A stretch of DNA of 64,000 nt from Trichoplax sp. H2 (taxonomy: Eukaryota), in assembly GCA_003344405.1 (NCBI GenBank), contig NOWV01000016.1, positions 372,001 through 436,000 of the forward strand. Reading direction: 5' to 3'. Numbering within the stretch: position 1 is the stretch's first letter; every line of letters begins with the position of its first letter. Of the stretch, positions 13,115-64,000 are shown piece after piece. Position numbers and translations under genes: made by a program. Under the pieces are notes generated by a model. It was not told the origin of the DNA, made no database searches, and saw only the letters and a program-made list of their open reading frames with translations.

Positions 13115-16100
13115 CTACGAATATATTCTGGCCTCGCATAAATCGAGTAAGCACTTGAGTCGATCAATTTCCCGATTACAATGCCTGTAGAACTTTTTTC
13201 TAGCTATAACTAGTAAAATTTCGTAAAATCCATCAAAATCGAGCAATTTTCCATTGTTATGTACAGTATTAATGGCTTTACAAGAGTATCCATATCGATA
13301 GTTACGAGTCATGTTGATAAATAGTACATCTAAGTCGGCGATACATATTTCTTTGCTGGGTATTCGGCAAGCCCTGAAATAAACAGAGATTAAAGTACGT
13401 ATTGCGAGTTAGTAATCTTCTAATTTTATCCGAAGTCACATCTTTGATTAGTTATAACTCAATAGCCTGGATAAAACATATCCATTGTAACGTATAGTTT
13501 GCAAGAATTCTAGTTAACCTTATGAATTGGCGAAAAAAGGACAAAGACATCGTTCTCGTATCATTGCGGCATGAAAATTTTTGATATATCTTGCAACACC
13601 TTTCAATAATTCTTAGCTCTGAATATTCTTCACTTAACTTTGGAAAAATATTACTAAATTGGATAGTTGTTTTTTCGATATTTTCTGTATTATGTGAAAT
13701 TTCCACTTTACTACAATGAGTACAAAATATTTACATATTAAGTTCAATCCGAAGCAAGCCTGACTTAGATTTCGTTTCACATTAAATGTAAGTTAACCTG
13801 GAAATTAATATTAGCAACAACTTAGTCGATAGGCGTAGTAACAAATTACCTTGCTTTGAATGATGGCTGGACCAATTTTAAAGTTTCGGCAATTAGTTGG
13901 CACTTTATATATTCATCAACTGGACTAATTACATTTGAAGATATCCCTCTCTTATTATACCGTTCGTGCTCTATATTTAAGCTTGGGTTCGCATTAACTT
14001 CAAGTAAATGTGGTTTTAAATCTTCGTCCAGTATTACATCAAAACCTAAGATCTAATATCGATGATTAGGCTATTAATGTAACTACAGGGTAATATTTCA
14101 GTAAGAAATATGTAGAATAATATGTTGTATACATTTAAAGTTAAAGCTAAAACAAGGAAAAATTGATCTTCTAGTGCGTCGATAGCCTATTATTATTATT
14201 AATATGCCACTATTAAGTAAATATTATACTGTGCTAACTGTATAACTACTAACAACAGCGTTATTTAATGAGAATAAGTCTAAATATTATCATAAAAGAA
14301 GTCGGCACGGTAATTTAAATTCCAAATCATTATGTAATTAACTTAAACTAGCACAACTTTACTTACATGGAAACAGCTAAATTTGTTATCTGGTACTTTA
14401 TGAATTGCATTCCAGCTATCAAATTCAATTTTTAAACTTGGTAACATTGCAATAATTGTTTTAGCGACTAATTGTTCGATAGCAAACCAAATAATATCAA
14501 TAGAGTGACCCAAATTTTCCATATTTTTTAATACCGAAGATATGGTTCTTTTGCTACCTTCGTGGGGATTATTCATCAATACAAATGATGGATTACTTTT
14601 ATTTAATGAATAATTGGTTAAATGCATACAAGTTTGTCTAAGATTTTTTAAATTTGGTACTTGATACGGCACAGTACAGAATCTTGCTAGACCATCACGG
14701 AATATATAAGTTTCGAGTGGATTTAAATTAGTTAATACGGCATATAATCTTAAATCGAATTTAAAGCCATCAATTAAATACGGATTTGATATATACTTTT
14801 GTATAACAACTGCTTCAGTGATTTGAAAATATAACGCTTCCAGTTGCTTTAAACCTTGCAATAGAAATATACCACGACCTTCGGAACCTCCATCAGGTTT
14901 AACAATAAATGTAGTACTATTTAACTCCTTCGGGCTTAATTTCATTACTTCAGTCATCATTTCTTGTAATGCAATCCAAGTTCGAGGATAAAAGGAGAAA
15001 TGCTTAGGAAATAGGGACCGTAGTCGATTTAGTAAATAAGCAAATTTTGCTTTACAAACTATTTCCTTCATTCCTATAAAGTAAGATTATAACTACGTTA
15101 TTGATATTTCAAGCTGTAGCAGAAATACCGTTGATCTAGACACATTTTATTTTAGCATATTATTGGCTTTATAGAGTGTCATTTATTCTTAAGTCATTTA
15201 AGTCATTTATTCTTAAGTGTAACACCAAAAAAATGTAGCAATAATTCTATAAAAACTGGTCATACTACTGATGCAATATTACCTGGAAATTTATTGACCT
15301 TTCCTTGAATAAATCTTTCTCGACTGGTTAAAGATTTTTCATGCCAATAAATATCACAAGACTTTACGTACAGAATGTCCCAACGTTCCTAAATTATTTT
15401 TAAAATTATAGTTAAAGTCGGTTTCAAAATTTAGGTAGTATTGATTTGAGTACTTTAAAAGTGATAACAAATGAAATCGTATTACAATACTGGCATAGTG
15501 CAGGTATTTCATTGTCTGTAGTAATGTAAAGTACTATGTTGAAGTAGATGCATACTTTAGAACATCTTGTAGAATTGAGTAAAGAAACAACAGCATAAGC
15601 TAATAGAGTAATTTATAAATGATTCCATTTCTTAGACAGAAGTCAATAAATCAATACTAGATGGTAATTAAATATAGGCTATTAGCATTTTCAATCTTGG
15701 TTGAATGAATACTATTTGATGTTAAACTATTTTATAAGAGCGAAGTAAATAAATTAGTAGTAAGCTTATCCTGAATGTGTTTAATATACGTCAAGTAGAG
15801 CATGGATAAAAGAAATTCGCTAATCGGTAGAGCTGACGCTAGCTATTACTGTTGCTGCGATGACACTATGGCAGCATAGGTTTAATTCATCATGACATGG
15901 CGCTTCAATTTCAACTCTATGTAAACTGCATGGATAGAAACTGTTGGATGCAGTTACTCAGATTTGATTTCAATTATAATTTTTTTAATTAAAAATTTAG
16001 TAGAAGAATAAAAATCTTAGTTGACATGCAATAGCTTTCATAAAAGTAGTGCTATAAAATTTTGAATGTTATTGGCTAATCTTGTAGTATTATATGATAT

Positions 16101-20067: not shown

Positions 20068-21066
20068 TTAATTATTATGGTACTTTGAGCACGGCAATGC
20101 ATGTAAAGTTGTCGTCAACACCTTTATAAAACCGCTACGGAATTTCTTATTTGTTGTACCATATATGATGGGATTTAATGCCGAATTAGTGTACACTAGC
20201 CAGCGACTTAATAATGTTATGACATGTGATATACAATCAAAGGAGGTTAATCTCATTGCTTCCGCAACAAAAAACAATAGCCAACACGTAAAGAAAATAC
20301 CAACAACAAAAAGGACAGTTCTAGTTAATTTGTTTTTAGCTCCAGTATTCCAGACTAAATAACAACAATTTTCATCGCAATGTACAACACGGGTATGACC
20401 TTTTGCAGTGGTAAATATTTTATAATAGGATAAACATATGATGATGGACGGAATATAATAGCACATAGTTACCACCATCGCTTCATAACGGATATCTTTG
20501 TTAAGCTTGCGAAAGAAGCAATGTCCGTAACTTGGTACAAAATCATAATATCCGAATCCTACTAGTGGTAAAATGGATAATATTGATGAAAAAATAACAA
20601 GGCAGCCAATAACAGCGAAAATAATGGATGGGGTTATTTTTCTCTCATATTTGAGAGGCAAGGAGACAGCGTAGCAGCGATCTATGCTAATAACTGCAAC
20701 AAATAAAGCCGAATTAAAAGATAAGAACGTATTGGAAAATGCTGTAAATGTACAAAATGAAGATCCTAATGTCCATCTTGATTGTAATAATACAGTTAAC
20801 CATAGTGGAAAGTTAAAGATCATAATTAAAAAGTCAATAATTGCCAGAGAGGCCATTAATATACTTGCGCCTTTATGCATTAAATTAATACGATAGATTA
20901 CAACCACCACTAATGCATTTCCTAATGCACCAATAACACATATAACCGATGTTAATGACGTTAAAATAATTATTAAAGCTGGAGAAAGTGAATTACAGTC
21001 TTTTAAGATACACCAGCGACTGTAGTTAAGATCATTTGAAAGTTCATTACATCCTGAACTCGACAT
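20068..21066 (-). CDS. Intronless class A (rhodopsin-like) GPCR, orphan
   Basis: Single ORF (332 aa from ATG 21066) with 7 hydrophobic segments and the motifs GN, LAIID, C3.25, DRC, CW and NSALNPIIY...KKFR. Confidence 0.92.
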   Translation of the reverse strand: MSSSGCNELSNDLNYSRWCILKDCNSLSPALIIILTSLTSVICVIGALGNALVVVVIYRINLMHKGASILMASLAIIDFLIMIFNFPLWLTVLLQSRWTLGSSFCTFTAFSNTFLSFNSALFVAVISIDRCYAVSLPLKYERKITPSIIFAVIGCLVIFSSILSILPLVGFGYYDFVPSYGHCFFRKLNKDIRYEAMVVTMCYYIPSIIICLSYYKIFTTAKGHTRVVHCDENCCYLVWNTGAKNKLTRTVLFVVGIFFTCWLLFFVAEAMRLTSFDCISHVITLLSRWLVYTNSALNPIIYGTTNKKFRSGFIKVLTTTLHALPCSKYHNN

Positions 21067-24000
21067 TGTTGTAAACAAAGTTAAGCCGAAAAATTTCGTT
21101 TCAGTAACTTGATTAATAGTGCTATCTCTTTAGAAAATGAAAATTGTAAATATAGATTAAATCCGTATGATTGTGGAATAAAACGGAAACTAGTAGCTTC
21201 TCCAAGCGGATATCTGGATCAATAAAAAGCAATACCAATATAATAAGCTTCATTGTTAGTCTAAATCGAATAATTGAAGGAATAATACCTAGGATTATTA
21301 GCATTTTTATAGTCTTCTAAAATGATAAGATGTTATCAAAAGCTCTCTTCTAACTATTAATAGATGGTAACTGGAGATTGCATTCTAGGATAAAAATTAC
21401 TTTTAATATATCATAGAGCGTTATCTAATTAATGAAAGAAGATTTGGACAAACAAGTTTCCGATTGTAACATTGACTATAGCGAAAATATGTTCGATAAA
21501 TCTAGTACTCACTTCTTAAAAGCCGTGTAATCTATGAGACTAAGAATTGGCTTCTTTGAGTTACCAAATTTTAAACTAATACTATAAATGGAGGATATAA
21601 GATTCATGCAATTGATCAAGAAATTACGATAGCTTGTTTAGAGTATTGACTTTGCTGTAGTAAACTATTACATTATCACATGCTTCATTTATTTTCTATT
21701 TGTGAAAGTTCTATAAATAATAGACTGAACAATTTAAGTCCTACAGCAGCAATTCGATACGATACTCAATATTTCAAGTTAACAAAATTTTTTTTCTACT
21801 AATTTTAAAATAAACATTTGCCTTACCACAACTGAACTTATTTCCTAGGATAGTATTGTAGATAAATTCTCCTCTCCTATTCAGGTTACTTAAATTGAGC
21901 CAATAATTGATAATTCAAGTTAACTTTTAAAAGATAAGAGTTGGTAGAAACCGCAGAGCCGTTGTCCTAAATGTTTTGCTAATTAGAAAAGAAAATTATT
22001 AAAAATTTTCAGCAACATTTGCAATAAATAAGATCTGGTAAACAACTTTATTGCTAGAGCATGTGAATATCATATGGGAAATTTGCTTTCGAAATGAGTA
22101 ATGCACTGTATCATAGCTTTTCAAAAATAAACTGCAGACAGCGATCAACAATCTGAAATAAATTTCTTTTTATTCCCTTCTCGTGGCTTAATTATCTTAA
22201 TACAAACATTCTAAAGCCATTTAAGTATACATGCAAACTACTATGCTTGCATCCCAATTAATTTTAGCGTAATAGTTAGTAATTGAAATTGAATATAATT
22301 GTTGTTTTAGTCATAAAGTTGTCATAACCAATACAACTAGCAATAATTTCATCTTTACCGAACAGATGTGACTCATTAAAGTCCTATTCAACAATAACAC
22401 AAGATAATGTTTGATTAAAAATTAAAAATTCAATGCTATTACCAATGGGGCAGCAAAGAAGGACGTGATCAAGGAATGGTGAGAATTTATAAATTAAACA
22501 GCCTTCTGTTACTACAACAACTACATTGCAGTGTTGTCTAAAATACTGAAAATATCCTAATAGTCAATTGAATATCAAAATTAATCTTGTGGTCAACACA
22601 AACTAGAACTGGCTATTTTAAAAAAATTTGAAGTTTACTTTATTCTAAGCCTGAATTAATTTCTCGTATATGTGAAGATTACTAAAGTTCATTAGGCAAT
22701 CGTAATCGGTTGCCTAAAGTAATAGAAAGTATTAAATATGATATCTTGATCATTCTGATAGAAGAAGGTAGATGCCGTTGGAGTTAAATAAATAATGTAA
22801 CCTTACAACTAGGGAATTGTAAATCTAAACATTTTATACAGTGGTAAATTGTCACTTGTGCTTCCTTCACGAGTAGAAGCTTGTTAAAGTTTCTGGCTTA
22901 TTTATAAGTTCAGAACCTTAGATAGTAAGAAATACGTTTGCTTCCAAGAAACATGCAATCGCATTTTTTAATTAAACCCTGAAATCTCTAACGTATATTA
23001 AATCGAAATCATCGGCATAGAAAGGTATTGTAAGAAATCAAGAGCTGAATTTTCTTGGCTTTAAATTGGTTGTTTCAAATTTCGCATTAATCAAAAGCAC
23101 TGAAATACAAGCGTAACCTATAGGCTTTGCTTTTATATTTTATATTGTAACTTTCAGTATTCTCAGTTTGCATGCAAATTGAAGGCATTAAGATAGAAAC
23201 TTGCCTAAAGAACGAATACTAGTATTTTTTGACTTTAAATATCAATATTTCTAGTTATATAACAAAAATGGTGTTGAGTTAAAAACTTGTAGTAGAAATG
23301 AATAGTTTCATTGTTGATTTAGTTTCAGTATTTCTATTTTACAAATAAATCCAAAGAATTTAGTTAGAGAACTTATTCCAAACAAAACAATAGTCTAATA
23401 CTAACTTAGTTTTCAATATTTCTAGTCTGTATCGAAATCTAAGACTAAAATAAAGCATAGTAAGAGAATTGACAGTGATATATTCAACTTCCAAAAGCTG
23501 AGAATAAAAAGTAGTGATTACTTAACAATAAATACACGTAATTTTGACCTCAGCAATGAATAACTGAGAAAGAAAGACCATTAATGAGAAAGAGGGAATA
23601 AAGCTTTAAAATGCAGTCGCAGTACTTTGTATAATGGATAAAAATTTTTTGATATTTCTATTTATAAGATGAAAATATTGGATGAAGAAGTTTAATTCAC
23701 TTATAGGTTGCAGTTACCTGATACGCCTTCGTAGTTGAAATAGAATAGATTTAAATGATCTTATTAATCGAATTCTAGTCTATTGACCAGCCAAAATTGG
23801 ATAAGCTTCGAGTTCTAAAATTTTCAAAATACTGTTATTAAACCTTAGAATGATAATAAACAATCAATTACCCCAAAGATTCAAGTTAACAAGATGAAAA
23901 TTGTGTCAACAATCTTTTAGTAATATGAAATGAATAAATTGCAAGCATTGTTGATAGTATTTAATAACTACCAGCTAGAATTCAAGATTGACGTATGGAT

Positions 24001-31394: not shown

Positions 31395-32081
31395 CAGACA
31401 TACTCTGGGAAGAATTGCAATGTACGTTTTGAAACATAGTGAGAATATAAGAACTGATGATTATGGTATGAATAGAAATAAAATGACTCTTGTCTGGATA
31501 ACTTCTATGTAAATCAATGTATAATGAAACCTTTTACATTTTTATATTACTGTGAATTGTAAATTACCGTAGTATGAAAATATTATAATAACAGAAAATT
31601 AATAACTCNNNNNNNNNNNNNNNNNNNNCATACTGAAATTAATAGTTATAATAGGGAATGCAAATCATCTGCTTACAGTTCGAATCATTGTGATTGTAAT
31701 TTACTTATGGTAGACTGTAAATTATCATGGAAATTTTCCGTGATAGGACATATCGTAATCTGACTATTCTGTATTAGTCNNNNNNNNNNNNNNNNNNNNA
31801 CGTGGTTCAAGGAATTGACTTATTGATCGTATATTGCGTTATCTTGTTGCAAAGCTGTTTTGTGACACAGACATACTCTGGAAAGAATTGCAATGTACGT
31901 TTTGAAACATAGTGAGAATATAAGAACTGATGGTTATGGTATGAATAGAAATAAAATGATTCTTGTCTGGATAACTTCTATGTAAATCAATGTATAATGA
32001 AACCTTTTACATTTTTATATTACTGTGAATTGTAAATTACCGTAGTATGAAAATATTATAATAACAGAAAATTAATAACTC
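31395..32081 (+). repeat. 214-bp near-identical duplication (31395-31608 and 31868-32081) spanning two 20-N assembly gaps
   Basis: The copies differ by 3 substitutions; N runs at 31609-31628 and 31780-31799. Confidence 0.9.
31800..31867 (+). mobile_element. 3' end of an LTR of the 18082 family, truncated by an assembly gap
   Basis: gcgttatcttgttgcaaagctgttttgtgaca (31836-31867) matches gcgttatctttgtcgcaaagctggtttgtggca (18631-18663). Confidence 0.75.
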
Positions 32082-41699: not shown

Positions 41700-44070
41700 G
41701 ATCAAAATTAAATCTATCATTTTGGTACTTACTATAGTCTTAACAAAAGCTAACGATCTCAACAAGCTTCAATATAGGCACGATTTCTTGCAAATGATAT
41801 CTTTACATATAGTTGCTTATTTTCCATTTCATCATACTTAAGTGATGCAAAATCTTACTATGACATCTAGTAATTCGTTTAGATAGTCTAAGCACCAATA
41901 TCTTTTACTAGGAAGATTAAATCAAATCAATCACATTGCTACTTACCATAGTCTTAGCTAATTATTTTAGCAAGCTCCAAAGGTAGCACGATAGTTTTCA
42001 GCTAGTATCTTTATATATATACAGTTTTTATATATTTTATTTCATCATACATACGCGATACCAAATCGTCATGGATGTCAACATTATATAGTAAGATCTA
42101 TTATATAATAATAGTATCGCTCAATCTTTAGATGTCTTCTGATATTATAATGCAAGATGCTAGAAACACATTTAGTAGTACTCTGGATAAAGGTTCTATC
42201 TGATACTCTACCCTGTGATATATACCGATCACGAAGTTCCAAATTTTAGAAAAATAAGGGCTTTATTGAATCTTATACAAAGATTTACTACTCACAGCTG
42301 TACTCTAGCCGAATACTACCTACTAAAGACTTCTAGAACGAACTAAACAGAATAATCTTAAGTTGCATGCTTTTATACTTTTCGTAGCATTCGCAGCTAC
42401 AATCCGCATTGCAACCTTTTACCTTATTTTACACATAGTTAAATTATTCTTAGTAACACTATTCTACTGCGGACCATCATTAATCCGATATGGATACGAC
42501 TACAGTATTTATGTTGACATAATTCACTCCAGTCAAAGTACAATGAATTAACCATATCCTAATATAGATTTACGGTTCTATTTTTACCTATAACCTTATT
42601 AGTAACTCAACACCTTACTGTATATAGTCATCTGTACTCTAGCATAGAGTCTATACCACTACAGTCTATAGTTATGGCTACCAAATATCTCTTAGGATAA
42701 ATATAGAACTTACGCTACCGTACATTGTACTAAACACGGCTAACAGTCTACAATCACAATACTAAGTTACATTACATACCCATATACCAAAATTTTAATC
42801 AAATCAATCTTATCTTTCCTGGACTCATATTTACCATGATCTATGATCAAGATTAAAACAAAGAGCCGAAAAAATTCTAGAACACTAGTAACAAGACGGT
42901 ACTCAAAGTATTATTTATATACAGTTGCTTACTTTCTATATTACCTATCCTTTACAATATCACCACAAATTGTTAATACAATCTAATGTGACTGGTTGAA
43001 TCATGCCAATATCACTCAACCTTTAAATTTCTTCTGATATTATCATGCAAGAAGTTATAAATATATATAGCAGTCCTATTGATTGAGAGTTCTATCTGAG
43101 GTTCTACATATCTACCCTAGATTGTGATTGAATCAATCTTATCTATCCTGGACTTCTATTAACCACAGCCTATGACTTAGATTAAGGCTAAAGATTTAAA
43201 CAAACTCTAATATAGTAGTAACGCGACTGATTTCAAAGCATTACTTATATAAAGTCATTTATTCTCTCTTATATAATCTATCCACTACTATATCACCACG
43301 AATTTCTAGCGCAATCTAATATGAATAGTTAAATCATACTAGTATCGCCTAATCTTTATTATCTTCTGATATTAACATGCAAGATATTACAAACACATAG
43401 TAGTCCTATAGATTAAGAACTCTATCTAAGATTCTACCATCTACCTAAAATGTGATGGTCTAAATCAATCTTATCTATTCCGGACTGGTAATCATTATAG
43501 TTTATGGTCTAGATTAAAATTAACGATTTGAAAAACTCTAATATAGTAGTAACACGACTATTTTCAAATTATTTATTTATATACGGTTGCTTATTCTCTG
43601 TTTTATCATCCACGTAATATTATATCACCACAAATTACCAACATTATGTGTCACTCAATTTTTAAATTTCTTCTGATACTGTCATGCAAAATGTTACAAA
43701 CAGATATAGTATCACTCTTGTTAAAAAGGGTCCTATTTGAGGCTCTATCGATCTAAGTTATGATTGAATCAGTTTTATCTATCCTGAACTTGTATTTACC
43801 CTAGTCTAGACTAAAATTAACGATCTGAACAAACTCTAATATGGTAGTGGCACGACTGTTTCCAAAGTTTTCATTTATGTACAGTTGCACATTTCCTATT
43901 TTATCATCCATATAATATTATATCGACACAGATTACTAATATAATTTAATAGGACTGGCTAAGTCATAGCAGTATCGCGCAAGCTATATATTTATTCTGA
44001 TATTATCATGCAAGATATGACAAATCCATACACCGATGATCATTTATGATTATAGTTCTATCTAGATTTA
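41700..44070. repeat. Degenerate tandem repeat, ~310-330-bp unit, about 6 copies
   Basis: Recurring landmarks: ttctgatatt.tcatgcaag near 42136, 43030, 43362, 43670 and 43995; aatcaatcttatct.tcc.ggact near 42801, 43131, 43462 and 43766; older copies at ~41700 and ~41920. Confidence 0.8.
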
Positions 44071-47951: not shown

Positions 47952-50900
47952 ATGCCGGAATTAAAGCCTAAAAATGATAAACCAACCGTTCACAATCTAT
48001 CTCCCTTGCCTGTCTGTTCATTAGTAAGTTTCATGCTTCAATATCTTAATTCTACAAGAATTTAGAGCAGATTCTCTGCTACTAATCCTAAGTACTTCAA
48101 TAATTATCGATATAGTGCAAAAGTTCTGGAGTGACGCGCTTTAACTTCGACTGTGCGAAATGCATGGAGAGGTTAAAGAGGTAAGCATAGGACAATTATC
48201 GATTCTTACATGGGTAACTTTACGTAGATAGCGAATAGCTAACCATTCAGAAAATTCTGATAAAACTTTTCTGGGTTCTACTTCTAGCTCCAAGACAACA
48301 ATATCTGAGCTATTTGCTATTTTACGTATATGGACTTCTTCGGTGCAGCAAAATATTTCAATTATCCTGAATCTTGTAAGTACATCTTATGGGATAAACT
48401 TCTGCAGCATTAATTAGACATATTAGCTATAATAAAGTAAATGCAACACCCTATTCTTGTCAGTAATTGTTATATATACATTATTAAACAGCTATCATTT
48501 ATACTCTAAAATATATCAGTAAAAAGATTTCAGGAAACTGCGTTCTTAAAGAGATGCATTCATAATCGGACATTATAATCTACAGATCTAAAACTAGGTT
48601 ACTCGAAAGACCTGATCTAAGACCAATATTAATTCATATTTAGCACGAATGCAAATACAGTCTTAATGATTATGATAGCGTGTTATTATAGCTACATGTA
48701 TATGTAATTTCTTAACTAATTTACTATATAATTGAAAACATAAAGATTTTCCAACGTGGCGCAAATATTAACGATCGAGACGGACTAACTGATTTAACTT
48801 TATTACATTACGCCTGTAAAGCCGGAGCAAGTATACTTAACATTAGATCTATACTTACAGCTACCTAGCTGCAGTACTTGATTGCCATTATTACAATTAT
48901 TAAGCAATCTGCATATCTAACCTATGAATGAAATATTCTATTTGAACTAGATCATATTGGGGACGAAAATATTGCGTCAAAGATCATAACTGATCTTATA
49001 ACTAAGGTAAAATAAGAGTCTTTGTAAATGACTACCTCTAGATTGACTCCGTGATGGACAAGAGCAGTCTTATACGCTATGGCTAAACATGGCTATCACT
49101 CTTGTACCCAAAATTTCAGGATAAACGTGCTAATCACCAAATATTTTATTTTATAATCATACCGATAATATCAATAGGGAGCAGATGTTACAGCTCGAAG
49201 CCGATGGACCGATATGACGCCGTTACATTATGCATCATTCTTTAATTGCTCAAACGTAATCAATGTATTAGCGAAGACGCTAACTTCTTCAGGTTAGCTT
49301 AATTATATTCAATCTGGCCAATTACGGCATTACTACCTAATATTCTCGATATACATTACCCTGTAACTAATTTTACTCTCTCCGGCATAAAATATCCTGT
49401 TGCTAAATGCAATTTTTACGTAACTTTGATGATTTATGTCTATTACTAATATTTCTATAGAAATAAATGCTAAATGCTCGAGCTTTGACGATGGTACCTC
49501 TCTTCATATTGCCGCTAACAATTTATGCAGGGGTGCAGTGATAGCCCTGGTAAAATATCTATCCTTTCATGGCTAAATTTCATTTACTGAATTTAATAAC
49601 GAAATATATGCTCAAAAACAGATAAAATAATATATCTCATCCAATTATTCTAATAAATGTAGACATTGCCCTTACCCTTTTCTATCTTACGTTTATAACA
49701 CAGTTAGGTCATGGTGCTAATCCTAACATAACCAATAATTTAAATCGTTCAGCATTGGAAGTTGTACCTGATGGTAAGAGAAAGCTCAGAATAACTTTTT
49801 ATAAACTGAGCGGAAAATAACACTTGCTCTATTTATTTTTATGGATACCAACTAGTGGTCGCATTAGGTTCACAGGCTGAAGCTGTCATTATCGCTAAAG
49901 ACATTCAAGAAATGCTGCAATGTGGAAATGATATTGCGAAAATGGTAATAATAACAAGTGTGAAGGGATCTAGGATGATAAAGCCGTTAAAGCTACATCA
50001 TAATGGACGACCTTAGCTCATTTACTTACAGATTTATTAGATGATCTAACGGTATATTTCGATTTGTCTTGTTCTCGCTTAATATTAAGGCTAATTGATC
50101 TCTCTTTATTTTTCTAACAAAATAGAAGACGATCCGGGATAGAATCCGATCACAAGAACGTGAGCAGCAAAAAATTAATAAAGCATTTTCTCCATTGACA
50201 ACTCAGGTCAAGTTAATGATATGTAGATAAAAAAGTTATTGGAGCACTACTAGATACTTAATTGCTTTTCAAGTCATAAATAGGACTAAACCAAGATGCT
50301 ATATAAAAATGAAACTATCGACTAATGACTATACCACTGAACGAGCAATATAAGACTTATATAATTCTAATCTTTAATATTCTGTAAACAGGTGTTGAAA
50401 ACGGATATGAATAAGGAAGTTAAGAAGAATGAATATCAAGAGAAGGTTGTAATACTTTTTATATTCATTAAGGCAGTCAACCTATTTATAAATCCATTTG
50501 AGTATTAAGCGTTAATTTGTTCCATAAAATTTTTCATAAAAGTTCTCATTATGCTACTGATCTGGACATTGAATAATAATTCCTCAGATTTTGCCCAACT
50601 CGAATAATAGCCGAGATCAGACAGAAAAATTAAATGGAATTAATCACAGTATATCGCCTAATCACGTTAAGGTAAGAATTCAATCGAATTTAAGAAAATT
50701 TAAGGCTAGAAAGCCACTGTGTTACTTGTAATAAACTATAATCGGTTATAATTGTGATAAATTCACTATTTACATTTGAAAAATCTGGTAAGTATGCTTG
50801 TTCTTAACGTTGACAGTTGAATAAGTAAACTATCCTATTTTCTTTATTTACATTTCTATTTATTCATTTATTTTATATCTTTCGCTAATGTAGAAAAATG

Positions 50901-53900
50901 AGAACAAAAGTGATACAGCTAATTTACCATCCATAGCTAATAATGTTACAAAACTTTTCCACATTGACGTGAAAAGTATGATACTTTTAGATAGCTCTTC
51001 TATTACTGTCTACTTCGTATTATTGAAAACATAAATAATAAGACAGTATAACTTCTAAATTGATATGGAAAAGTAGACAACAGAAACTAAATCTTAGAGA
51101 AGAAATGATCATTTATGTTTTCATTTAAACTACACTTACGTATGTTTTTACTGAATTGAAATTCAATATAAATTTTTAAACTATCACAAAAAGTAAAAAT
51201 AATATAGTACTACCCTGCATCTGCTTTATATTACATAATACAGTATTTCGATAGCATTCATCACCTAGAGACATTAAAAAAAGTAAATTGAGAAAAGGTG
51301 TTAAGAAAAATGATTCATTAGAGCAGGACGAGGTTGATATAATACTTAACAATTCTAATCATACTAAAATTGAATATAGATGCTTAAAGATAGGAAATCA
51401 TTAAATGGTATATTGTTGTGTTATACAGGTTACAATTATACAATAGCTTAGATAATTTATTATAAATTTATGATCATATATAGTACCTTTTAATATAATA
51501 AATATTTATGACTATGTCTTAATTATAGTTATCCATGTATGCGATATTTTTATAATTTATGCACTGTCCAGAAATTTATATCTTATTATTGTTTAAATAT
51601 AATACTCAATTTTGCTCTTTAGACAACCAAGGACGGTAAAAAAAGTAAATCTAGGGACAGCAACAAGAAAATTAATTCATTAGATGAAGATGAGGTAGGA
51701 ATAAATTACTCGCTTATTCTCACATTAATTTGATTTATTAGTGCTTGTATGCAAGTAGAAAAGGACAAAAAATTTTTTGAATTCTATTTCGTATTTAATT
51801 TAATTTCCTATCTTAGGTATCGCCTAAGGATGGTAAAAAGAATAAGTCTAAAGATAGCGTTAAGAAAATCGATTTATTAGATCAAGATGAGGTCAATACC
51901 AAAATTATATATAAAAGCTTGAATTAAATATCGCTACAGAAAATGAATACTTTCAGAACATGTATTTGATAGCCTAATTAATTTCTTCTCTTCAGATATT
52001 CCCTAAAGATATTAAGAAAAATAAATCTAAAGATATTACTAGGAAAATCGATTCATTAGATCAAGAGGGGGTTCGTGTAAAAGCTAACTTTCACGTCTAA
52101 ATTGCTTTAGAAGTACCATAATAAATTATTGGTACGGTAAACGATGAAAAGCATTGAAATAATTTAATATCTTTCTCAATAGGCTTCACCCAGAGAGAGT
52201 AAAAAAAACAAATCTAGAGACGGCAGTAAGAAAGGCGATTCATTAAATCAAGACGATGTAAGTAGATTTAGGTTGGCATTTTCACATTTAATTTAATTTC
52301 GAGTCATCTCAGTTGAGCTACATTGGTTATAAATAGTTTCACTTTCAGGTGAATGATAGAAAATACTTCCAAGAACTATTTCCTATTAATCATTTAATAT
52401 TTAATTTCCATTCTTCAGGTATCGCCCAAGGGTAGCAGAACAAAGTCTAGAGATACTGTCGAAAAAATGGATTCATCAGAGCAAAATGGGGTATGCTGAG
52501 TTTATTCGCTTCATACACGTTTAATCAATTGGATGCCGTAGCTGGAGTGTTCTAATCAATTTTGAACATGATGACAGAAATTGCCTCAATCTCCTTTTCA
52601 TAATTTTGTAGACATCGTCCAAGTTGCCTCCTAACGGTAGTAATAAGAAAATTAGTGATACAGTTGACAGAATTTATTCTTTTCATAATCAAGATGAGGT
52701 ACAGATGAATTATCTAATTTTTCCTCATGGTTTTTTCATACCTATTCTACTAATTATATACGTGCTAGCTTGTGATGAAAGATCTAGCCACAAAGTAACT
52801 GCTTTCATTATCAATCTATTGCTGCAGGAAACTCATAGGGATAGAACTACTGATTTTAGCAAAGGAATTAAGTCTTTAACTCAAAACGATGTAAGACGTT
52901 TAGATTTGCATTCCAAGACTAAATCATAAGATAAAATTTTCATAGAGTAAGAAAAAAGAGATCTATAGTAATAAATTTCTTGTCCATATCGATTAGATCA
53001 ATGTAATGCAATCATTCAGAATCCTATAGAATTCAATATTACGATTAATATGTTAATATCCATTACAGATATCGAGTGAAATACTCCAGAAAGAAAGCAA
53101 ATCAATCAGAACGATCGAAAAAATGCACGAAATGAATTCACTTGATGATGACGTAAGAAAATGTCTATTCTCGATCACTTTATTACTTATTCATGCTTCA
53201 ATAAAAGAATTAAAGTAGAGTAAAATTTCAATACAACGAATGGGAACATTGAATCTATTTGATGATCTTTTCCTATAGATTGTAACTGATCTATCTCTTA
53301 GTGAAAGCAGTAAGAATAAATCTAACGAAACCGTGAGTTGAATTCAAGCCTTAACCTAAGATCGTATTCAAACATATTTTACTCTCACTAAACTTGATTC
53401 AAATGGATTACATCTTGGACTTTGATATTATACAAATGATTTTCGATGCTGATAATCCTTACTTGAAAGAATTACATGGTAGTTTTTACGTAATAGATGC
53501 GCTATATGGTCGCAAACTTGGGCTCTAACGAGCTTAAATACTGAACTTTGATAGCTTAATAATGCTGTCATCTAGTTTTGGCATAAAGGAGCTCAAATCT
53601 TAGCTTGAAAATGCATAAACATACTTTAGCTACCATTATTCCTGGCTTTCGTGAGCTTAAATTCTAACCTTTGAGAGCTAAAAAATACCACCCAGAAACT
53701 TTGGTTCGAAGAAGTTCAAATCTTAACTTTTGGGATGTAGAACTAACTACTTTTAGTGGTGATCAAGCCTGATTTTAATGAGCTAAACTAAAAATAAATC
53801 AAATCTTAGACTTTGAAAGTGTAGAAAAATGTTTAGCTGTCATCAAACCAGAATTCCAGGAGTTAAAACTCTAAGGCCGTAACATTATAAGAAACTTTTT

Positions 53901-56900
53901 CGGCATCGTTCAACTTGGCTTGGCGAAGCTTATTTATTAGACTTTAATACAGTAAAACTGCTTTTAGCTCGTCATTAAAACTTACATTAAGAGAGTTTAG
54001 GCTATAAATTTTGATACCATATCTTATTGCTTTACCATTGCCACACTTTGTCCAAAAATACTCAAATCTTAAGCTTCAATAGTTGAAAAATACTTTCCAC
54101 TGTTCCCAAAATTGGCTTAAAGAACTTCGATCTTTCGATTTTGCATAAACATTTTCTACCGTAAAATTTAGCTCGGAAGTATTTAAATCTTATATTTGAA
54201 TGGTAGAAAAATACTCTTTACTATCACCAAATTGGCTTGAAGGACTTTAATCATTCGATTTCGTATAAATATTTTACTGTCTGAAGTCTAATTTAGACGC
54301 ATCAATTCGTAGGCTTTAAGGACTTCAATCTTTTGATATCGTGTAAATATTTTACGACAGCAAAATATAGTTCGAAAGTATTCAAATCTTTGGCTTCAAT
54401 AGCTGAAAAATACAATTACCGTCGCCAAAATTGGCTTGAAGAACTTCAATCTTTCGATATTTCATAAATTATTACTTTCGCAAAATCTAGCTCGAAAGAA
54501 TTCAAACCTTAGCCTTCAATATTAAAGAAATACTCTTTTCTATCGCAAAATTTGCCTGAAAGAGCTTCAATCTTTCGATTTTTCTTAAGCATTTAACTGT
54601 TGTATAATCTAATCTGGAAGTACGCAAACTTTAGACTGCAATGATAGATAGATGCACCACATATCTTGCTACCATTCAATTTGGCCTGAAAATGTTCAAA
54701 TCTTAAATCTTGAGCGCAGAGAAATATATCTTTATGCTTATAAAATTTGGCTTGTAAACCAGTTTTTTTAATTTATAATACCATACCGTAAATATTAATA
54801 GTAATGGAATATTCTTTTATATTAGTTTAATATACTTCCTAACTATGATTTCATGACAGGTCCAGTCGTCATCTGAATATAAGGTTACTAAAAGAGAAAA
54901 ATCAAAGCAGTCATTGAGGAGATTGAATTCACTAGATCAAAGTGATGTAAGAATACCCTAAATTGTAATGCTTAATCATACATAGCCTATTTATAATATA
55001 CCTTTAATGGCATAAATATGAATTGCGTCACCATGATAGAACTGAATTAGTCATAGATATGCGATTTTAATTTATATTTGTATAGAGAAAGAAGTCGCTT
55101 GTCGATAAAATTAGATCCATATCATTCGTTAAGGTCAGGAAAGGAATTTATTTTCTACTAAAATTTAAATTTCTTGATATAACTAGCCCAATAGAGTCCT
55201 TACGGCTAAAACTACACAACCTTTATTCAATTACTGAATATTGTGATTCGAAATTCAATAGAATTTTGATAGTAGCCAGGATGACTCTCCATCTGATTCG
55301 GGAATAGAACGTAAAGTTAAAGTAGGTCTTCTATTCTTAGCTATTAACTTCATTAATTTCTTAATTTAAGATATTATAAACAAAAATTGGAATAGTATTT
55401 ATAGGCTGATTTCTTCATATCAGTTCTTAGTTTAGAAAATCGCTAAATAGGATATCAAAAGTCTATCTCTAAATAAATTCGATCAAATCCTGTCCCATTC
55501 CTCCGGTAGAATCTCTTAATTTATAATAATGGCTAGATCTATTTCAATTTCTTTCCTCAAATAATTGAATCCAATCCAGTTTCAAGTAAATTCTTTAAAG
55601 CCACCCCAGTTTACAATAACCTGCAGATAAAGTATTTTAATAATGATACCTTGAATGATCGAATTTAATTAAACTGCAACTAATTTTATCACACAGCTCC
55701 TAGTTTAAAAATTGTTGATAGGAAATTTTAATGCTAATTACCTTCGATATTGCTCTTAAGTAACAAAATCTAAAATTTAATATTTATAATGTTGCTTCTC
55801 GAATGGTTGGATTTAACTAATCCTAAACGAAATTTTTACTACTTCTTTTCTACTATCATATTGATAAGTAGAAAATATTAAATGTCGATTACTTAAATAA
55901 CGAAATTACATTAACATTACTTTGAACCATTTCGTAGACTGTAATTACAAGTTAATATTATTAATTAATAACGACAGTACACCGAAATGTATGAGACATT
56001 TATGATGAAATGTTCGCCATATTATATCAAAAATGTGGCATGGCTTCAATATCACCTCGATAGATCGCTTAATATATGAATTTCTGATAACTTCAGATTT
56101 TATATTTCTAAACATTTAATAGAATACTGAATTTTTACTATCTTGAATCATGATAGAAACGTGAAAGCAGTAGAACTCACGCCAGTAAAGAAGAAGATAC
56201 GGAATCAAGTCATAATGTAATTCGGATATATAGGATATAAATTAATAGCATATTGCATGATATACGTACATCTGCATGAGTATACGACTAAGTAACTGCT
56301 ATTAAAAGTTTTAAAACTATCAAAGTCTAGTAATATATATTAGATTCTGATGAGTTACTGTATGCTAGAGTTAGCTAGTGTACCCTTAAGAATATTAACT
56401 AGACACTTATCTTTCAGAAACGCGATAGTAACAAAACCCGTTCTAGCAAAGAAGAAGACATCATATCCAGTAATAAGGTTGATAAGATATGTACTGAGTA
56501 GTAAAGCAATTGCTATACTATATATTCAGTATGCACTGCTAGGCAATAAATTGAACAGTATTTATAAGCCATCAAACTTAGTAAAATAAAACATCTATTA
56601 TGCATACCTACTTCAGAAACATGAAAGTAGTAAACCTCATACTAGCGGAGGAGACGACAGTCTATCCAGCAATAAGGTGGAAAGGGTATCTTCTAAACAA
56701 TTTATCAATTTCTATGCTATAAATTAAATATATAACGCTAGATAATAGGTTGAACAACATGTATAAGTCACCAATCTTAGTAACATAAGACATGTGTTAA
56801 ACGCTCTCTACTGCAGAAACATGAAGGTAGCAAAACTCAAGTTTGTAAAGCAGAAGATAATACATCTAGTAGCAAGGTAATTATTTTTGTATGATAAATA

Positions 56901-59900
56901 GTAAATTAAAGTATTATACATTGGATAAATGTTGTTGAATAACAAACTTAGGAGTTTTAAAAATTATCCAGTTTAATCAAAGAGATGCAAGTATGTAAAT
57001 ATTAAAAATTATGGATGAAAAATGTATCTATTACAGAAACATGAAAGTAGTAATACTCATATCAGTAATGGGGAAGACATCATATCCAGCAGTAAGGTAG
57101 GAAAGCATAACCTAAATAATACATTATTACACACCGAGTATATATGGAGTGCCTTCCTTTTTAATAATGTACTGAAATCGTCTAGAGAACCTTTTATTTA
57201 AACCTTCCTTTTAATAATGTACCGAAATCGTCTAGTAAAAATTAGTATATATCGTTAAAAAATGTTAATATGCAAATTAAATGAACATATCATAGAAACA
57301 TGAAAGTAGCAAAACCCACACCAGCAAAGGGGAAGATAACGCAACCAGCAATAAGGTAGAAAAACACGTTCCAAATAACAAATTATTATTCACTCAGTAT
57401 ACGTGTATAATGAGTGTGTTTCTTCAAATAACATACCAAAGTCACTAAACATTAACATAAATCATATTAGAAATATCAATATAAAAATTAAACGTACATA
57501 TTACAGAAGCAAGAAAGTAGCAAAACCCATACTGGCAAAGGTGAAGATAACACATCCAATAATAAGGTAGGAAGCACATTCTAAATAGCAAATTATTGTA
57601 CACTTAGAATATATTAAGCGTATTCCTTTTAATAAAGTGCTGAGGCCATTAGTATAAATCACATTAAAGATGCTAACATATAAATTAAATGCATACATCA
57701 CAGAAGCGTGAAAGTAGCAAAGGTCTTACTAGTAAAATCGACGACAATCTATCCAGCAGTAAGGTATTTACAATGTCATAACCATATGACATAACGCTTT
57801 TGCAAATATGAATGACATAAAATGATGCATACAATAAATTCTTTACCTCATTCTTATACATTAAAAAAATAGCTTTACATAAAACATACAATAATTAATG
57901 CAAAAATATGAAATAAATTTCATGTTTTCCTTTTATACAAACTAATACTCAAAGGTAAATTTATCTTTACTCATTTTAATTGCAGAGGAGTTCTAAGGAT
58001 AAGATTGATCGGAATCGTAAATCAAGATCAAGTGGTGATCGTAGATCGTCAGATAAAAAGGTTTACAATTAATTAAAATAGATTAATACGTCAGTTTTAT
58101 ATCTAGATCTTGGAAAATTTAAAAAACTGCAGCAGTTAAATGAATTTAACGATTCTCAATTATTCCTGGTATTTGCAAATTCGATGTTCTATTTGAGCTC
58201 GCAAACGTATTAGCATTTAAATATAAATTTGTAGGATATAAAAACAAGAAATTAATTTACCAATATACGTATAATATGCTTTTTGGCTGATACTAGTCAA
58301 GTTTATTAATTTAAATTTATGATACTATTAATAATACTTGCGTACTTGTACGTACTAAATGTTATTGCACCATTCTTGATATCAAAAATCTACAGCATAT
58401 CTAGAATTTCTATGTTATGTATATACACTTTTAGTCATTAAAGGAAACTATTTTGAGCTTCGATTTCAAGCCTGGAGATACTGTTCGTAGTGGTAGCAAA
58501 GTGAGCTTAATTTTCAAATTTTCAAATTTTCCAAAATATCTTCATATGAAGAGCTACTGCGTTAAAATCTTTAAGCTATGAATTTTTTACACTATATTTC
58601 ACACCACTTTTGGCTAAAATGATGCTAATATCAACTAAGGTCGGCAAGTTATGCTATTTTGGGAGGACAGAATTTGCCGATGGAATATGGGCTGGTATAA
58701 AATTAGATGAACCTATCGGTAAAAACGATGGTACAGTAGATGGAGTAACTTACTTTAGTTGCAAACCTAAGCATGGTAAGATGTGAATGAATATGCAAAT
58801 ATATTCTAAGGTCAACAAGGCACTCGTCAATTTGTTGTAATTTAGGTATTTTGGTAAATGCGTCCAGAGTACAGAAAGTAACGGACCATACAACTAGTGA
58901 TAGCAATCAGTTTTCCGATCTTATACCTAACCCTTCGGAGATAAAGAATATTTTCGAAAGTGCAAGTGATTCTTCGCAATTACAATCCAATCCTGACGAA
59001 ATTAGCGTATTAGACCTTTTACAACTGAAATATGAATCATCAAAAATTAGGGTAATGCGACTTTACAATCCACTCATTTACTGTAGAATAGAATAAGTTC
59101 TAGAAATATGAGATAAGACATTCAAAATAAGATTGTATAATTAGGATATAGACTGTCATAAGCATTTCTATTCTGCCATTTTAGATAGGAGACCGAGTCA
59201 TTGCGTCCGATGATAAACCAGGAGTAGTTCGTTTTGTAGGAAAAACTAAATTTGCTAGTGGGTGAGTAAATTCTCAATATTGCGATTGCTGGTCAATCAT
59301 TAGATAATTAAATCTTATTGATCTTCTTAACTGATTTACTTCATGAATATTTATTAAAATACTGATATTGGAAATTGAAATTAAATTGAAAAGTACCTGG
59401 ATTGGGATTGAACTTGATGAAGAGCTAGGTAAGAACGATGGTTCGACGGCTGGCGTTCGCTACTTTACTTGTAAGCCCCGCCATGGCGTCTTTCTTCCAC
59501 CATCTAAAGTTATGAAGTATGTCGATAGCATCATTATTCCTACTGCTTTCATTTTGGGTATTTTTACTAAATATGAACAATTTAGAGGATATCTAGATTA
59601 GCATGTATTAACTTATTAATCGGTGTATCTATAATTTAGGGATTTAAATTACTACTACGCAGCGAAATTACAGAAAGAATCTGACTTACAAGCTGCTCAA
59701 GCTGAAAAAGCCCGATTAATTAAAAATGCTAACTTGCCAGATGAGAATAAAAATAGGTATACCTACCTTTATCTCATTTTTCACTCTATATATCAATCAG
59801 TACATTTGATTTCATGACTACGAAATTGTTGACTAAAAGACTGAACTTTGATACTATGTAATTATGTTAAAACATAGCAGTATTTGACAAAACGACAACC

Positions 59901-61044
59901 TTTTGATTTTACCATACTCATTTTGTACTTACTTTAAAACGAAACTGTACATATTACGAGAAAAGTATACAATATACTGTAATTTTAAATCAAGCATCCA
60001 TTAGAAATTTTTACGCTCGAGGTTATTGGAATCGAATTTAGACGACATATAAAACTGATTTCAGGACATTTCAATTCTTGCATGCTGTTCCAATAAATTT
60101 TTTATCACAAGTTAAATTAGTTGATTCTATGGTGTACTATAAATTTATCAGCTAGGGAATTTAAAACCTAACAAAGAACGCTATGTTTTCATATTGGATT
60201 AAAATTATCAATATGCAACCTATAACCCTATTTTAATCGATAATTTAAGAATTTTTTTATCCACTATGTCTGTGACAGGGATGTTTCTGCTTCGAAATCA
60301 AGTATAAGTGACAGCGTTGATACGGTGCTTAGAAATAGTAAAATCAAAAGAGAGAGTGATGAAAAAGCGATAGCAATGAATCTAAAGCTCAAAACCAATA
60401 CCAACAATTCTTTAGGCAAATCTGACCCTAACTCTTCCAGTATTACTGTCACAACGGTGAGTTATTATGGTCAATTTCAGCTGCATTGGTAATTTTCTAA
60501 ATTAGAAATTGTATTTCATCGTACAGGGAATGAGTGCATACGTCAACAGCGACATTGGAATTATCAGATTTATCGGTTATGTTGAACCCCTGCATGGAAA
60601 TTATCTCGGCATCGAGTTACGCAAACCAAGTAAGTTTACTGCGGAGTAGCCAGGAAGCCTATTGCTACACTGATAATGATAATTCATACTAAATTTATCT
60701 GCATCAGTTTAATTAATTTCACTTACAACGCTATTTTAGAGGGAACCATGGATGGCACATATGAAGGCAAAAAGTACTTTGCCTGGTATGATATTTAGTT
60801 ATAATCCAAACACGCGCAAATTCTTTCTAGACACAATAATTTATCGTAGGAAATGTGATATACGCGTATGTTAATTTTTATCTGTGTTTAAAATTGAAAA
60901 ACTATTCTGTTAACTCTCATGACGATCATCTTAAAATTTTGTTTTTACTTTGTCTTCTTTAGTAAACCCAATCATGGTCTTTTAGTTAAGCCAAGTGCCG
61001 TTACAGTCCGGGGAATTAATGCAGCAGAATTAATTGAAGAATAG
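47952..61044 (+). CDS. CLIP4: CAP-Gly domain-containing linker protein (CLIP3/CLIP4 family): ankyrin repeats, ~590-aa repetitive linker, three CAP-Gly domains; roughly 45 exons
   Basis: N-terminal exons: [79 protein letters not shown]-Gly motifs [17 protein letters not shown] (~58.7 kb), [13 protein letters not shown] (~59.4 kb) and GIELRKP.GTMDG (~60.6-60.8 kb). The C-terminus [27 protein letters not shown] is CLIP4-like. Confidence 0.88.
51255..54946 (+). repeat. Coding exon array A in the CLIP gene: ~11 related phase-0 exons (54-87 nt)
   Basis: Exons at 51255-51332, 51623-51694, 51817-51891, 51996-52070, 52183-52257, 52419-52490, 52612-52698, 52828-52890, 53069-53152, 53279-53332 and 54860-54946. 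All are AG/GT-bounded, multiples of 3 and stop-free; consensus approximately [25 protein letters not shown]. Confidence 0.85.
53500..54760. repeat. Degenerate ~60-bp minisatellite with ~120-bp A/B higher-order period inside a CLIP intron
   Basis: aaattggcttgaagaacttcaatctttcgat units (near 54109, 54229, 54428, 54549) alternate with aaaatctagctcgaaagtattcaaatcttag units (near 54164, 54363, 54483, 54605). Confidence 0.75.
56157..57763 (+). repeat. Coding exon array B in the CLIP gene: eight 60-nt phase-0 exons
   Basis: Exons at 56157-56216, 56418-56477, 56617-56676, 56817-56876, 57037-57096, 57296-57355, 57507-57566 and 57704-57763. Each encodes 20 aa, consensus [20 protein letters not shown]; flanking introns are also homologous. 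Confidence 0.92.
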
Positions 61045-61822
61045 TCTTCCATTACTTATTAAGAAGTATATGACAAAATACCAACTTTTAACTAAGAAAC
61101 TAAATTTTATGCGTTGCAATAAATATAGAAAAAGCAGTCTTGAGTCAATATTCTAATTCGATATAACAGTAGTATTGTGCAGTATATGGCTAATTTATTA
61201 ATTTAAGATAGCATACCATATGCTTGAATATAACCGTATCTATATTTGCGAACTACGCGGTCAAATAATCTTATACGCATCATTCTTTCAATCTTACCCT
61301 TCTATTTTTACTAATTATATTGCAATATTCTAATTTCAAGGATATCATTATCTGCGCTTACTTGCTATTTCATACAATCATTCCGTTGTACTAATTCTAT
61401 ATACTACGATTCGTCGTCAATTTATAATATCTTTTCTCTTAATGGTGTGTTCTCGCTTGCTTATACATATATATTATAATTCTCATTTATTAAAATTGCT
61501 TATTGTATAAGGCCATGTTTGTACAATGTAAAATGTATCGAGTACCTGCCTTGACATTATATAGTTCATTGTAAGGCACTGGAATATTTATGAATTAATA
61601 ATGTTTATAATTAAGTATCTATCTATTATCACTAGATTCATTAGGTCTCGAAATAAAGTTAAAAGAAAAAATGGTTCTTAGCTAGTACTATATTGTAGGT
61701 AGTTTTACCATTAACAGCTCAACAATATTTATATACGCGTATTTGCTAACGTTATGAAATTATACGATAAAAATAAATTAAATCACTTGTATTATGACAT
61801 AATCCTTTTGCCTGTATTGAAG

Positions 61823-63199: not shown

Positions 63200-63929
63200 T
63201 TATGTACTGCTTAAATTTAAGTGCTTAGTATCTGTAGGTGACATAGCGTCCCTATCAACCTTCCAAGTCACACATTGTTCAATTGTCATATCTAAATAAT
63301 TTTGCATACGAATTGGAATGTTTGTCTGATTACGAACACTTCGTAAATGTGCAAGATCTTTCCAAAGCATTGGACAATATTTTGTAGCTAAAATTTTAAA
63401 ATGTTGACGTTAGTAAGCTAACCACGCAATGAATAATTAATATTTAGCAGCAAAGCAGATTACTAATAATAAACTTACGGTAAACTCCAGTCAAATTTGC
63501 AAATGCCCAACTAGCAAAGTACTGGACTTGCATTGTATCATTAAGTAGAAGGTAAATTATCGGCGTTAACGATCTGCAATGGATACACCATGAATAAGCA
63601 TTAGCCGAGTATAAGTATCAAGTGGTACATTTAAATGGCAATCACTTTTAAATGTCATTAACCTATAATTGATTGTACGGTCTGCTTTTATATTCCAACT
63701 TTCGCTTACACTAATCTTTATGTGAAAAATGAGACATTTAGGTTAGAAAAATTTTACTTGAAAAAATGTAAAAAGTTATCAATGGATTGAATCGCTCACA
63801 ATTTCATTTAAAGTCTCTTCACGTAACGTTTCGCTAACAGTCCAGGCATCCTCTCCATCGGATGCTAAATGAGCCAAAATACCTGCTGAATTATAGCCTA
63901 TTTCTAATTCACTTTCTCGTAGTAAAGAT
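63200..63929 (-). CDS. ZER1: 3' exons of a ZER1 (ZYG11-family Cul2 substrate receptor) gene; 5' part lies outside the window
   Basis: Four exons read SLLRESELEIGYNSAGILAHLASDGEDAW..., WNIKADRTINYR, SLTPIIYLL...QYFASWAFANLTGVY and TKYCPML...; these resemble the ZER1 C-terminus (EVSYNACGVLSH..DG.EAW, NINYRSF.PI, WALYNL..VY..KYCP). Stop at 63200-63202. Confidence 0.85.
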
Positions 63930-64000
63930 CTATAAATCATGACATAGAAACAACATTTTTTTAATTTTATCACATATATTGCCACAACAATCTACAGCAT

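Follow-up and report, generated by a model that had tools for sequence, protein, structure and literature searches.

Introduction

In the region of vertebrate titin rich in Pro, Glu, Val and Lys (PEVK), short exons have been multiplied together with their introns, and exon duplication and loss reshape the region, as described in passages of one published analysis (PMC6469411). Here, we examine a set of eight short exons, referred to as Array B, that spans positions 56157 to 57763 of a 64,000-nucleotide (nt) stretch of the Trichoplax sp. H2 genome (assembly GCA_003344405.1, contig NOWV01000016.1, positions 372,001 to 436,000 of the forward strand; this whole stretch is hereafter called the window, and all coordinates count from its first letter). 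Array B lies in a gene whose product carries ankyrin repeats at one end and CAP-Gly domains at the other. The PEVK region is its closest analogue in design, since in both the exon number determines how long a repetitive, unstructured segment becomes. The two differ in scale and use: PEVK comprises ~100 exons with a Pro/Glu/Val/Lys composition, undergoes extensive documented alternative splicing and acts as a mechanical spring, whereas Array B has eight exons, a Ser/Lys/His/Glu/Asp composition, no skipping that we could see, and a CAP-Gly linker as its host.

Other described systems offer partial parallels. Tandem copies of equal length and the same phase are the usual anatomy of mutually exclusive exon clusters. 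Array B shares with tandem exon duplications and with such clusters the adjacency of similar exons, their equal length and phase, and the homology of some introns, but its copies are used in series and lengthen the protein instead of diversifying one position. Fibrillar collagen genes contain a family of 54-bp exons, a length tied to the Gly-X-Y triple helix. Array B resembles them in the short, fixed length of its exons, which is divisible by three, in their start at a codon boundary and in their repetition along the gene; it differs in showing no evident structural period, and our data do not demonstrate that its exons are bound to a length of exactly 60 nt. For the host protein, the relevant comparison is with CLIP3 (CLIPR-59) and CLIP4, in which N-terminal ankyrin repeats are likewise followed by CAP-Gly domains.

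We consider it probable, at roughly 80%, that the eight units of Array B are exons 25 to 32 of a CLIP3/CLIP4-type ankyrin-plus-CAP-Gly gene, that they are included consecutively in the mature mRNA, and that they lengthen a flexible linker.

Eight equal exons in a CLIP3/CLIP4-type gene

An initial annotation, prepared from the sequence alone, had proposed eight exons of exactly 60 nt at this place, and their positions, AG/GT flanks and peptides proved right to the base. On the forward strand, copies 1 to 8 (gene exons 25 to 32) occupy 56157..56216, 56418..56477, 56617..56676, 56817..56876, 57037..57096, 57296..57355, 57507..57566 and 57704..57763, respectively; each extracted unit has AG on its 5' side and GT on its 3' side, and all are read in one open frame. 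All eight copies are in phase 0-0 and measure 60 nt at a homologous AAG|GT boundary, the length of copy 3 being set by that homology. The seven introns between them are 201, 139, 140, 160, 199, 151 and 137 nt long, matching the range of 137-201 nt given initially. Besides the extraction of units, the reconstruction of the gene and a sequence profile support copies 1, 2 and 4, the same profile supports copy 3, the reconstruction supports copies 5 and 7, and the reconstruction together with RNA contigs supports copies 6 and 8; the RNA evidence on copies 2, 4, 5 and 7 is presented in the next section.

A nucleotide profile built from the eight units (nhmmer) recovered all eight copies with E values of 9e-15 to 1e-18, the next best match in the 64-kb window having an E value of 2.6, and a peptide profile of the array found the same eight copies only. 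Because both profiles match these eight and nothing else, we conclude that the window holds no decayed ninth copy. A repeat finder also returned the full set of eight, with consecutive copies in register and spaced by 197-261 nt. Tandem Repeats Finder, run on the window, did not report Array B, to which it is blind because the copies are only 60-83% identical in pairwise comparison. Being adjacent exons of significant similarity, equal length and equal phase, the copies constitute a tandem exon array. The track of open reading frames (ORFs) misses these exons, as had been remarked initially, which is merely a consequence of their size of 20 codons each.

The array is bordered by exon 24 (55262..55321, forward strand; 60 nt, phase 0-0) and, downstream, by the Arg/Ser/Lys-rich exon 33 (57986..58060, forward strand; 75 nt). 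The nucleotide and peptide profiles picked up no kinship of either exon to Array B, and the same holds for a second set of repeated exons, Array A (51623-55133, forward strand), in which exons 13-17 (72-75 nt, phase 0-0) are clear repeats and exons 18-23 look like their diverged relatives. Scanning introns 21, 24, 32 and 33 revealed no hidden open, hydrophilic unit flanked by AG and GT. Both arrays belong to a linker block on the forward strand (50126..58500; residues 244-810) that consists of exons 10-34, that is, 25 consecutive exons of 48-87 nt, all in phase 0-0, unlike the exons of the ankyrin and CAP-Gly modules, which have mixed phases.

The first lead to the host protein was a CAP-Gly-like ORF downstream of the array (58619-58786), which matched a deposited record of 1165 amino acids (aa), RDD45439.1, named 'CAP-Gly domain-containing linker protein 3 [Trichoplax sp. 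H2]'. A GT-AG reconstruction of the host gene (47952..61044, forward strand; 43 exons) reproduces 1165 of the 1165 residues of this record, in which all eight units are present in series. The deposited models are reported to have been made with MAKER in an evidence-based annotation that took in transcript assemblies (PMC6057997). The protein begins with ankyrin repeats (Pfam Ank_2, 1.2e-12, and Ank, 6.8e-10; residues ~73-210), continues in a long linker, and ends in three CAP-Gly domains (Pfam CAP_GLY, 2.1e-70 in three stretches, within the last 355 residues). A HMMER scan of 1.84 billion representatives yielded 10592 relatives at E 0.001 or better. The top representatives, at E 1e-113 to 1e-124 and with 36-39% identity in the alignment, are CLIP4-like proteins (Varroa, Priapulus) and a CLIP3-like protein (Branchiostoma), names that are automatic annotations. 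With N-terminal ankyrin repeats, C-terminal CAP-Gly domains and its closest relatives in this family, the host protein has the domain makeup of CLIP3/CLIP4.

Between these two, CLIP3 has two CAP-Gly domains and CLIP4 has three, and CLIP3 carries, after its last CAP-Gly domain, a C-terminal membrane-targeting tail with palmitoylated cysteines. The Trichoplax protein ends 4 residues past the last predicted element of its third CAP-Gly domain and has no Cys in its last 26 residues, so that it lacks the Cys-bearing, membrane-targeting tail specific to CLIP3. On these family features, three CAP-Gly domains and the absence of such a tail make it resemble CLIP4 more closely than CLIP3, the name under which it was deposited. 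A search of the full-text literature for Trichoplax with CAP-Gly, or for exon duplication with Placozoa, found nothing on this gene by title or abstract, subscription journals and supplements lying outside its scope. The array seems to be undescribed as such, though its exons are already in GenBank.

The initial claim of invariant exon length holds at the homologous AAG|GT boundary, but not in the deposited model, in which the third exon measures 69 nt. There, 9 nt (56677..56685, forward strand) are added through the next in-frame GT (56685|gtat) and encode V-E-R. We scored both donors with a position-weight matrix built from 34 donors of the same gene outside the array, which assumes that positions are independent. 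The 60-nt donor (AAG|gtggaa) reached 6.2 bits, about the median, with 17 of the 34 reference donors scoring lower; the 69-nt donor (AGG|gtatct) reached 1.4 bits, under all 34. These scores weakly favour the 60-nt boundary of the initial annotation, and the 69-nt exon may represent either an annotation slip or a genuine donor shift.

The copies are joined in series in RNA

Part of the region 51500-61100 is represented in 18 public runs, and Logan contigs of four of them were aligned to it. Two of these runs (X5 and X8) are on record as RNA, and two (X7 and X4) are probably RNA. Logan contigs drop rare variants, and rare isoforms are invisible in them. The contigs gave 30 joints, 15 of which are listed in detail, and our statements on individual joints rest on those 15. 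All 15 are GT..AG joints that coincide with annotated introns of the reconstruction. Within the array, the joints 57096/57296 (copy 5 to copy 6) and 57566/57704 (copy 7 to copy 8) were found in four of four runs, as was the joint 58060/58435, which leaves exon 33 downstream. The array joints have 60 letters on their shorter side in three runs; therefore, a whole exon stands between two joints within a single contig.

Loose contig ends extend this picture to further copies. In X8, a contig has a loose end behind 56477, which shows use of the copy 2 donor; the 14 overhanging letters fit the starts of copies 3, 5 and 6 equally well. The loose end in X7 before 56615 carries 10 letters that match the end of copy 2 only, which places copy 2 directly before copy 3 (56477 to 56617). 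In X4, exons 27 and 28 (copies 3 and 4) are covered at a depth of 127.7, and three variant places inside the intron between them at a depth of 0. Spliced RNA using these very AG/GT boundaries had been named initially as the deciding observation, and for the two array joints listed it is present in all four runs: the copies of Array B are transcribed and spliced at the predicted borders.

Two further observations concern the same contigs. Unspliced contigs in X5 (~56614-56877) and X7 (56648-56843) raised the possibility of a specific retention of intron 3, which we rejected in favour of general pre-mRNA or DNA background because coverage of the 1.5-kb intron 21 in these two runs is about as deep (14.9 and 17.9). 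Strain differences listed for the array exons number three, all non-synonymous, namely 56647 G>A in copy 3 and 56826 G>A and 56844 T>A in copy 4. In copy 4, the window and X4 encode Gly at repeat position 4 and Cys at repeat position 10, and the changes at 56826 and 56844 turn both into Ser, the repeat consensus. X5, X8 and X7 read A at both places, although at 56826 only part of the depth in X8 and X7 does so. The two indels listed inside the array (behind 57571 and behind 57691) are both intronic.

The joints bear directly on how the copies are used, a question for which the initial annotation had called for junction reads. If the array were a mutually exclusive cluster, each transcript would carry one 20-aa variant, and the tandem arrangement, equal length and shared phase of the copies have that appearance. 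Such use is refuted by the consecutive joints in RNA contigs, since direct joints link copies 5 and 6 as well as copies 7 and 8 in four of four runs and a loose end ties copy 2 to copy 3; all eight also stand in series in the deposited protein. We therefore regard mutual exclusivity as next to impossible.

Skipping is a different matter, as it was not seen in the listed contig joints, which are of limited reach. The eight exons could be cassette exons, any subset of which might be skipped without a frameshift to give graded linker lengths, as in titin PEVK. All eight, and indeed all 25 linker exons, are in phase 0-0, and the relevant passages of one study argue that duplicated symmetrical exons, which preserve the frame, are prone to skipping (PMC6335736). 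An exon-like unit related to Array A is, moreover, bypassed in all four runs. This unit (51255-51332, forward strand) is 78 nt long, open, flanked by AG and GT and in phase 0-0, lies inside annotated intron 12, and matches a profile of three Array A exons (14-16) at E 6.7e-10. RDD45439.1 does not contain it, and the contigs of all four runs join exon 12 to exon 13, as read from a loose end at 51621 that consists of the last bases of exon 12. Exons 13-17 of Array A are themselves connected by RNA joints in four of four runs, and the 78-nt unit may be spliced in on rare occasions as a cassette exon, or it may be a silent pseudo-exon.

For Array B itself, the observations tend the other way. No exon-skipping joint occurs among the 15 of 30 joints listed in the four runs, although rare isoforms would escape contigs of this kind. 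The total of 30 joints equals the 30 introns annotated in the stretch, so that no room is left for skipping joints if each intron accounts for one joint, an argument from the count. Whole array exons are flanked by further joints within one contig in three runs, and the deposited model, itself evidence-based, carries all eight. On balance, use of the copies as cassette exons appears unlikely, and we favour their consecutive inclusion.

Duplication history and selection

The initial annotation held that the exons had been duplicated with their introns, which stands for some introns and is weak for others. Introns 2 and 3 (56478-56616 and 56677-56816, forward strand, with copy 3 between them) are 71% identical with gaps of only 2 nt and 1 nt, at a z of 14.5 against shuffles. 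Introns 5, 6 and 7 (57097-57295, 57356-57506 and 57567-57703, forward strand) form a homologous trio with z of 7.8-11.4 and many indels, 5 gaps separating introns 6 and 7 and 9 gaps separating introns 5 and 6. Similarity is weak in the pairs 1-2, 2-7, 4-6 and 4-7 (z 2.7-3.5), and the other 20 of the 28 intron pairs, with z of 2.1 or below, are not clearly different from shuffles. Intron 5 additionally contains an internal duplication (57150..57235, forward strand), consisting of two ~33-nt copies ~17 nt apart with a 50-nt period. This bears out the local duplication of ~33 bp noted initially, 57159-57185 and 57209-57235 being 96% identical.

These relationships suggest that a unit of ~200 nt, comprising one 60-nt phase 0-0 exon and an intron, was duplicated in tandem several times. 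Copies 2/3 and 5/6/7 would be the youngest products, because their introns can still be aligned, and the others would be older. As the unit is symmetrical, each duplication adds exactly 20 codons and leaves the frame undisturbed. Even the youngest introns differ in ~25-29% of aligned columns. The two Trichoplax genomes are reported to be 99.1% identical (PMC6057997). Set against this identity, the intron divergence indicates that the duplications took place long before the split of the two Trichoplax genomes.

The contrast in indels between exons and introns had been read initially as selection on the reading frame, and our counts uphold that. In three independent contrasts (introns 2-3, 6-7 and 5-6), we found 16 gap events in 423 aligned columns. 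At that rate, 6.8 gap events would be expected in the matching 180 exon bases, where none was observed (Poisson P = 0.0011). Freedom from frame-breaking indels is, however, common to all coding exons. A requirement for exactly 60 nt is a separate claim, and it is not demonstrated: only 1 of the 16 intron gap events has a length that is a multiple of three, so that the comparison has no statistical power on this point (0.4 frame-preserving exon gaps expected, none seen, P = 0.65).

The encoded peptide is conserved as well. The ratio of nonsynonymous to synonymous substitution rates (dN/dS, NG86 method) is 0.41 for copies 2-3, 0.21 for copies 5-6 and 0.14 for copies 6-7, the pair 5-7 being saturated at synonymous sites; pooled over 28 exon pairs, which are not independent, it is 0.20. 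Differences among the copies number 98, 151 and 242 at codon positions 1, 2 and 3, respectively. The copies follow the motif K-[RH]-E-S-S-K-T-H-x-S-K-x-[ED]-D-x-x-S-S-x-K, in which K1 and D14 are invariant. Selection thus acts on the frame and, as purifying selection, on the 20-residue peptide (20-mer) itself.

These data also dispose of the possibility that the array is a non-coding intronic repeat or an artefact of gene prediction that happens to be open. Such an accident would be helped by an AT-rich genome (30.5% G+C) and by the shortness of the exons, and the array peptide has no relative in protein searches beyond the deposited model. However, spliced RNA contigs use the predicted borders, the differences among copies are concentrated as 98/151/242 over the codon positions with a dN/dS of ~0.2, and the exons contain no indels compared with 16 in the homologous introns. 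We give an artefact practically no credence. The initial annotation saw in them genuine coding exons, copied along with their introns as units and maintained in frame by selection, a view that RDD45439.1, the RNA joints and the indel contrast alike support.

A linker far longer than in relatives

We measured the spacer that separates the ankyrin module from the first CAP-Gly domain in the host protein and its relatives, using the 56 of the best 150 relatives that carry both modules. It spans 568 aa in Trichoplax sp. H2 compared with a median of 37 aa (range 20-211) in the 56 relatives, in which neither exon array has a counterpart. Searches with the array region, in libraries from which the proteomes of other placozoans may be absent, found no relative: residues 581-790 against proteins of 640-2039 aa returned 1 of 1288 candidates, the query itself, and among 2010 candidates of 30-639 aa none matched residues 560-800 with an E value of 0.1 or lower. 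Pfam detected nothing in the linker, and a features search of the ESM Atlas produced no usable match. Given the short spacer in relatives and the lack of an array counterpart, the long linker and both exon arrays would be lineage-specific additions to an old two-module protein.

The composition of the linker is that of a disordered segment. Hydrophobic residues make up 16% of it and charged residues a fraction of 0.40, which places it beyond the charge-hydropathy boundary, on the side of disordered proteins. Array B corresponds to residues 601-763, which is 160 aa by the 60-nt boundaries and 163 aa in the deposited model, and falls on the same side. It contains 9% hydrophobic residues and 33% Ser+Thr, and its charged fraction is 0.37 at a net charge near 0 (33 Lys+Arg and 28 Asp+Glu, in addition to 10 His). 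An AlphaFold2 model, built on an alignment of 26 rows, agrees with this. Its predicted local distance difference test (pLDDT) score is at least 90 for most of the ankyrin module and for three beta-rich CAP-Gly blocks, and the model is confident over residues 11-290, including a helix at 240-288 (pLDDT 85-88). The score drops below 50 for nearly all of residues 290-792, and residues 601-763 have a pLDDT of 29-36 and no secondary structure. One helix was predicted inside the linker, at residues 487-513, with a pLDDT of ~61-63.

Possible roles of the array

In our proposal, the array would lengthen a flexible, highly hydrophilic tether between the ankyrin end and the microtubule-binding CAP-Gly end of the protein, and would thereby set its reach. 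The 20-mers are probably more than filler, because they are conserved (dN/dS ~0.2). Being Ser-rich, they most plausibly serve as repeated motifs for phosphorylation or weak binding. In six of the eight copies, an acidic residue stands at +3 from Ser10, an arrangement that we take to fit the casein-kinase-2 pattern. Ser-rich basic flanks are also found in other CAP-Gly proteins.

Several points weigh against consecutive inclusion in a linker-lengthening array, or against parts of it. Of the seven array junctions, two are among the listed joints and a third is deduced from loose ends, while the junctions between exons 25/26, 27/28, 28/29 and 30/31 rest on the deposited model and the joint count. 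Minor skipping isoforms would be lost from Logan contigs. The donor of copy 3 differs between homology (60 nt) and the deposited model (69 nt), and the listed RNA joints do not decide between the two. The linker has no aligned relatives, which partly lowers the pLDDT there. The analysis covered a single placozoan locus, on which any view of the age of the array, the stability of its copy number and the constraint on its length would depend. Finally, both the spacer role and the phospho-motif role are inferred from the sequence.

A bolder version of the tether would make the linker a placozoan invention, an exon-modular tether of tunable length in which the cell type decides which exons of Arrays A and B a transcript contains. 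We hold this to be quite doubtful. Were it true, the unit at 51255-51332 would be one case of a skipped exon, and skipping would alter how far the protein reaches from membrane or cargo to microtubule, and also how many of the conserved Ser/His-rich 20-mers it offers for phosphorylation or multivalent weak binding. A PEVK-like design would then have arisen independently, in a cytoskeletal linker of an animal from among the earliest branches, where exon skipping is reportedly rare.

Other features of the window

Tandem Repeats Finder reported two repeats in non-coding sequence: 54312-54588 (121 nt x 2.3) lies within the host gene, in the 1.5-kb intron 21, and 42787-43643 (332 nt x 2.6) lies upstream of that gene. 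Neighbouring genes were identified by Pfam on long ORFs. On the forward strand lies hamartin/TSC1 (6694-11136). On the reverse strand are a gene of the tubulin-tyrosine-ligase family (14346-15086), a rhodopsin-type G-protein-coupled receptor in a single ORF of 353 codons (20071-21129) and a ZER1-like C-terminal domain (63779-63991), as well as a tektin-like gene (4001-5134) whose match lies below the Pfam cut-off. Two runs of 20 N (31609-31628 and 31780-31799) are assembly gaps or masked stretches.

Implications

Tandem exon duplication that expands a disordered linker is an ordinary, well-known kind of event, and Array B is no new kind of genetic element. What it offers is a clean and datable example of the growth of a disordered linker through tandem copying of a symmetrical mini-exon together with its intron. 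Two generations of copies are still recognisable, and a spacer of ~37 residues in relatives became one of 568 in the placozoan. The locus may therefore serve as a teaching case and as a caution for annotation, since exons of 20 codons escape ORF scans and one deposited donor looks doubtful. It may also provide a starting point for asking whether non-bilaterian animals tune the length of linkers by means of exon arrays.

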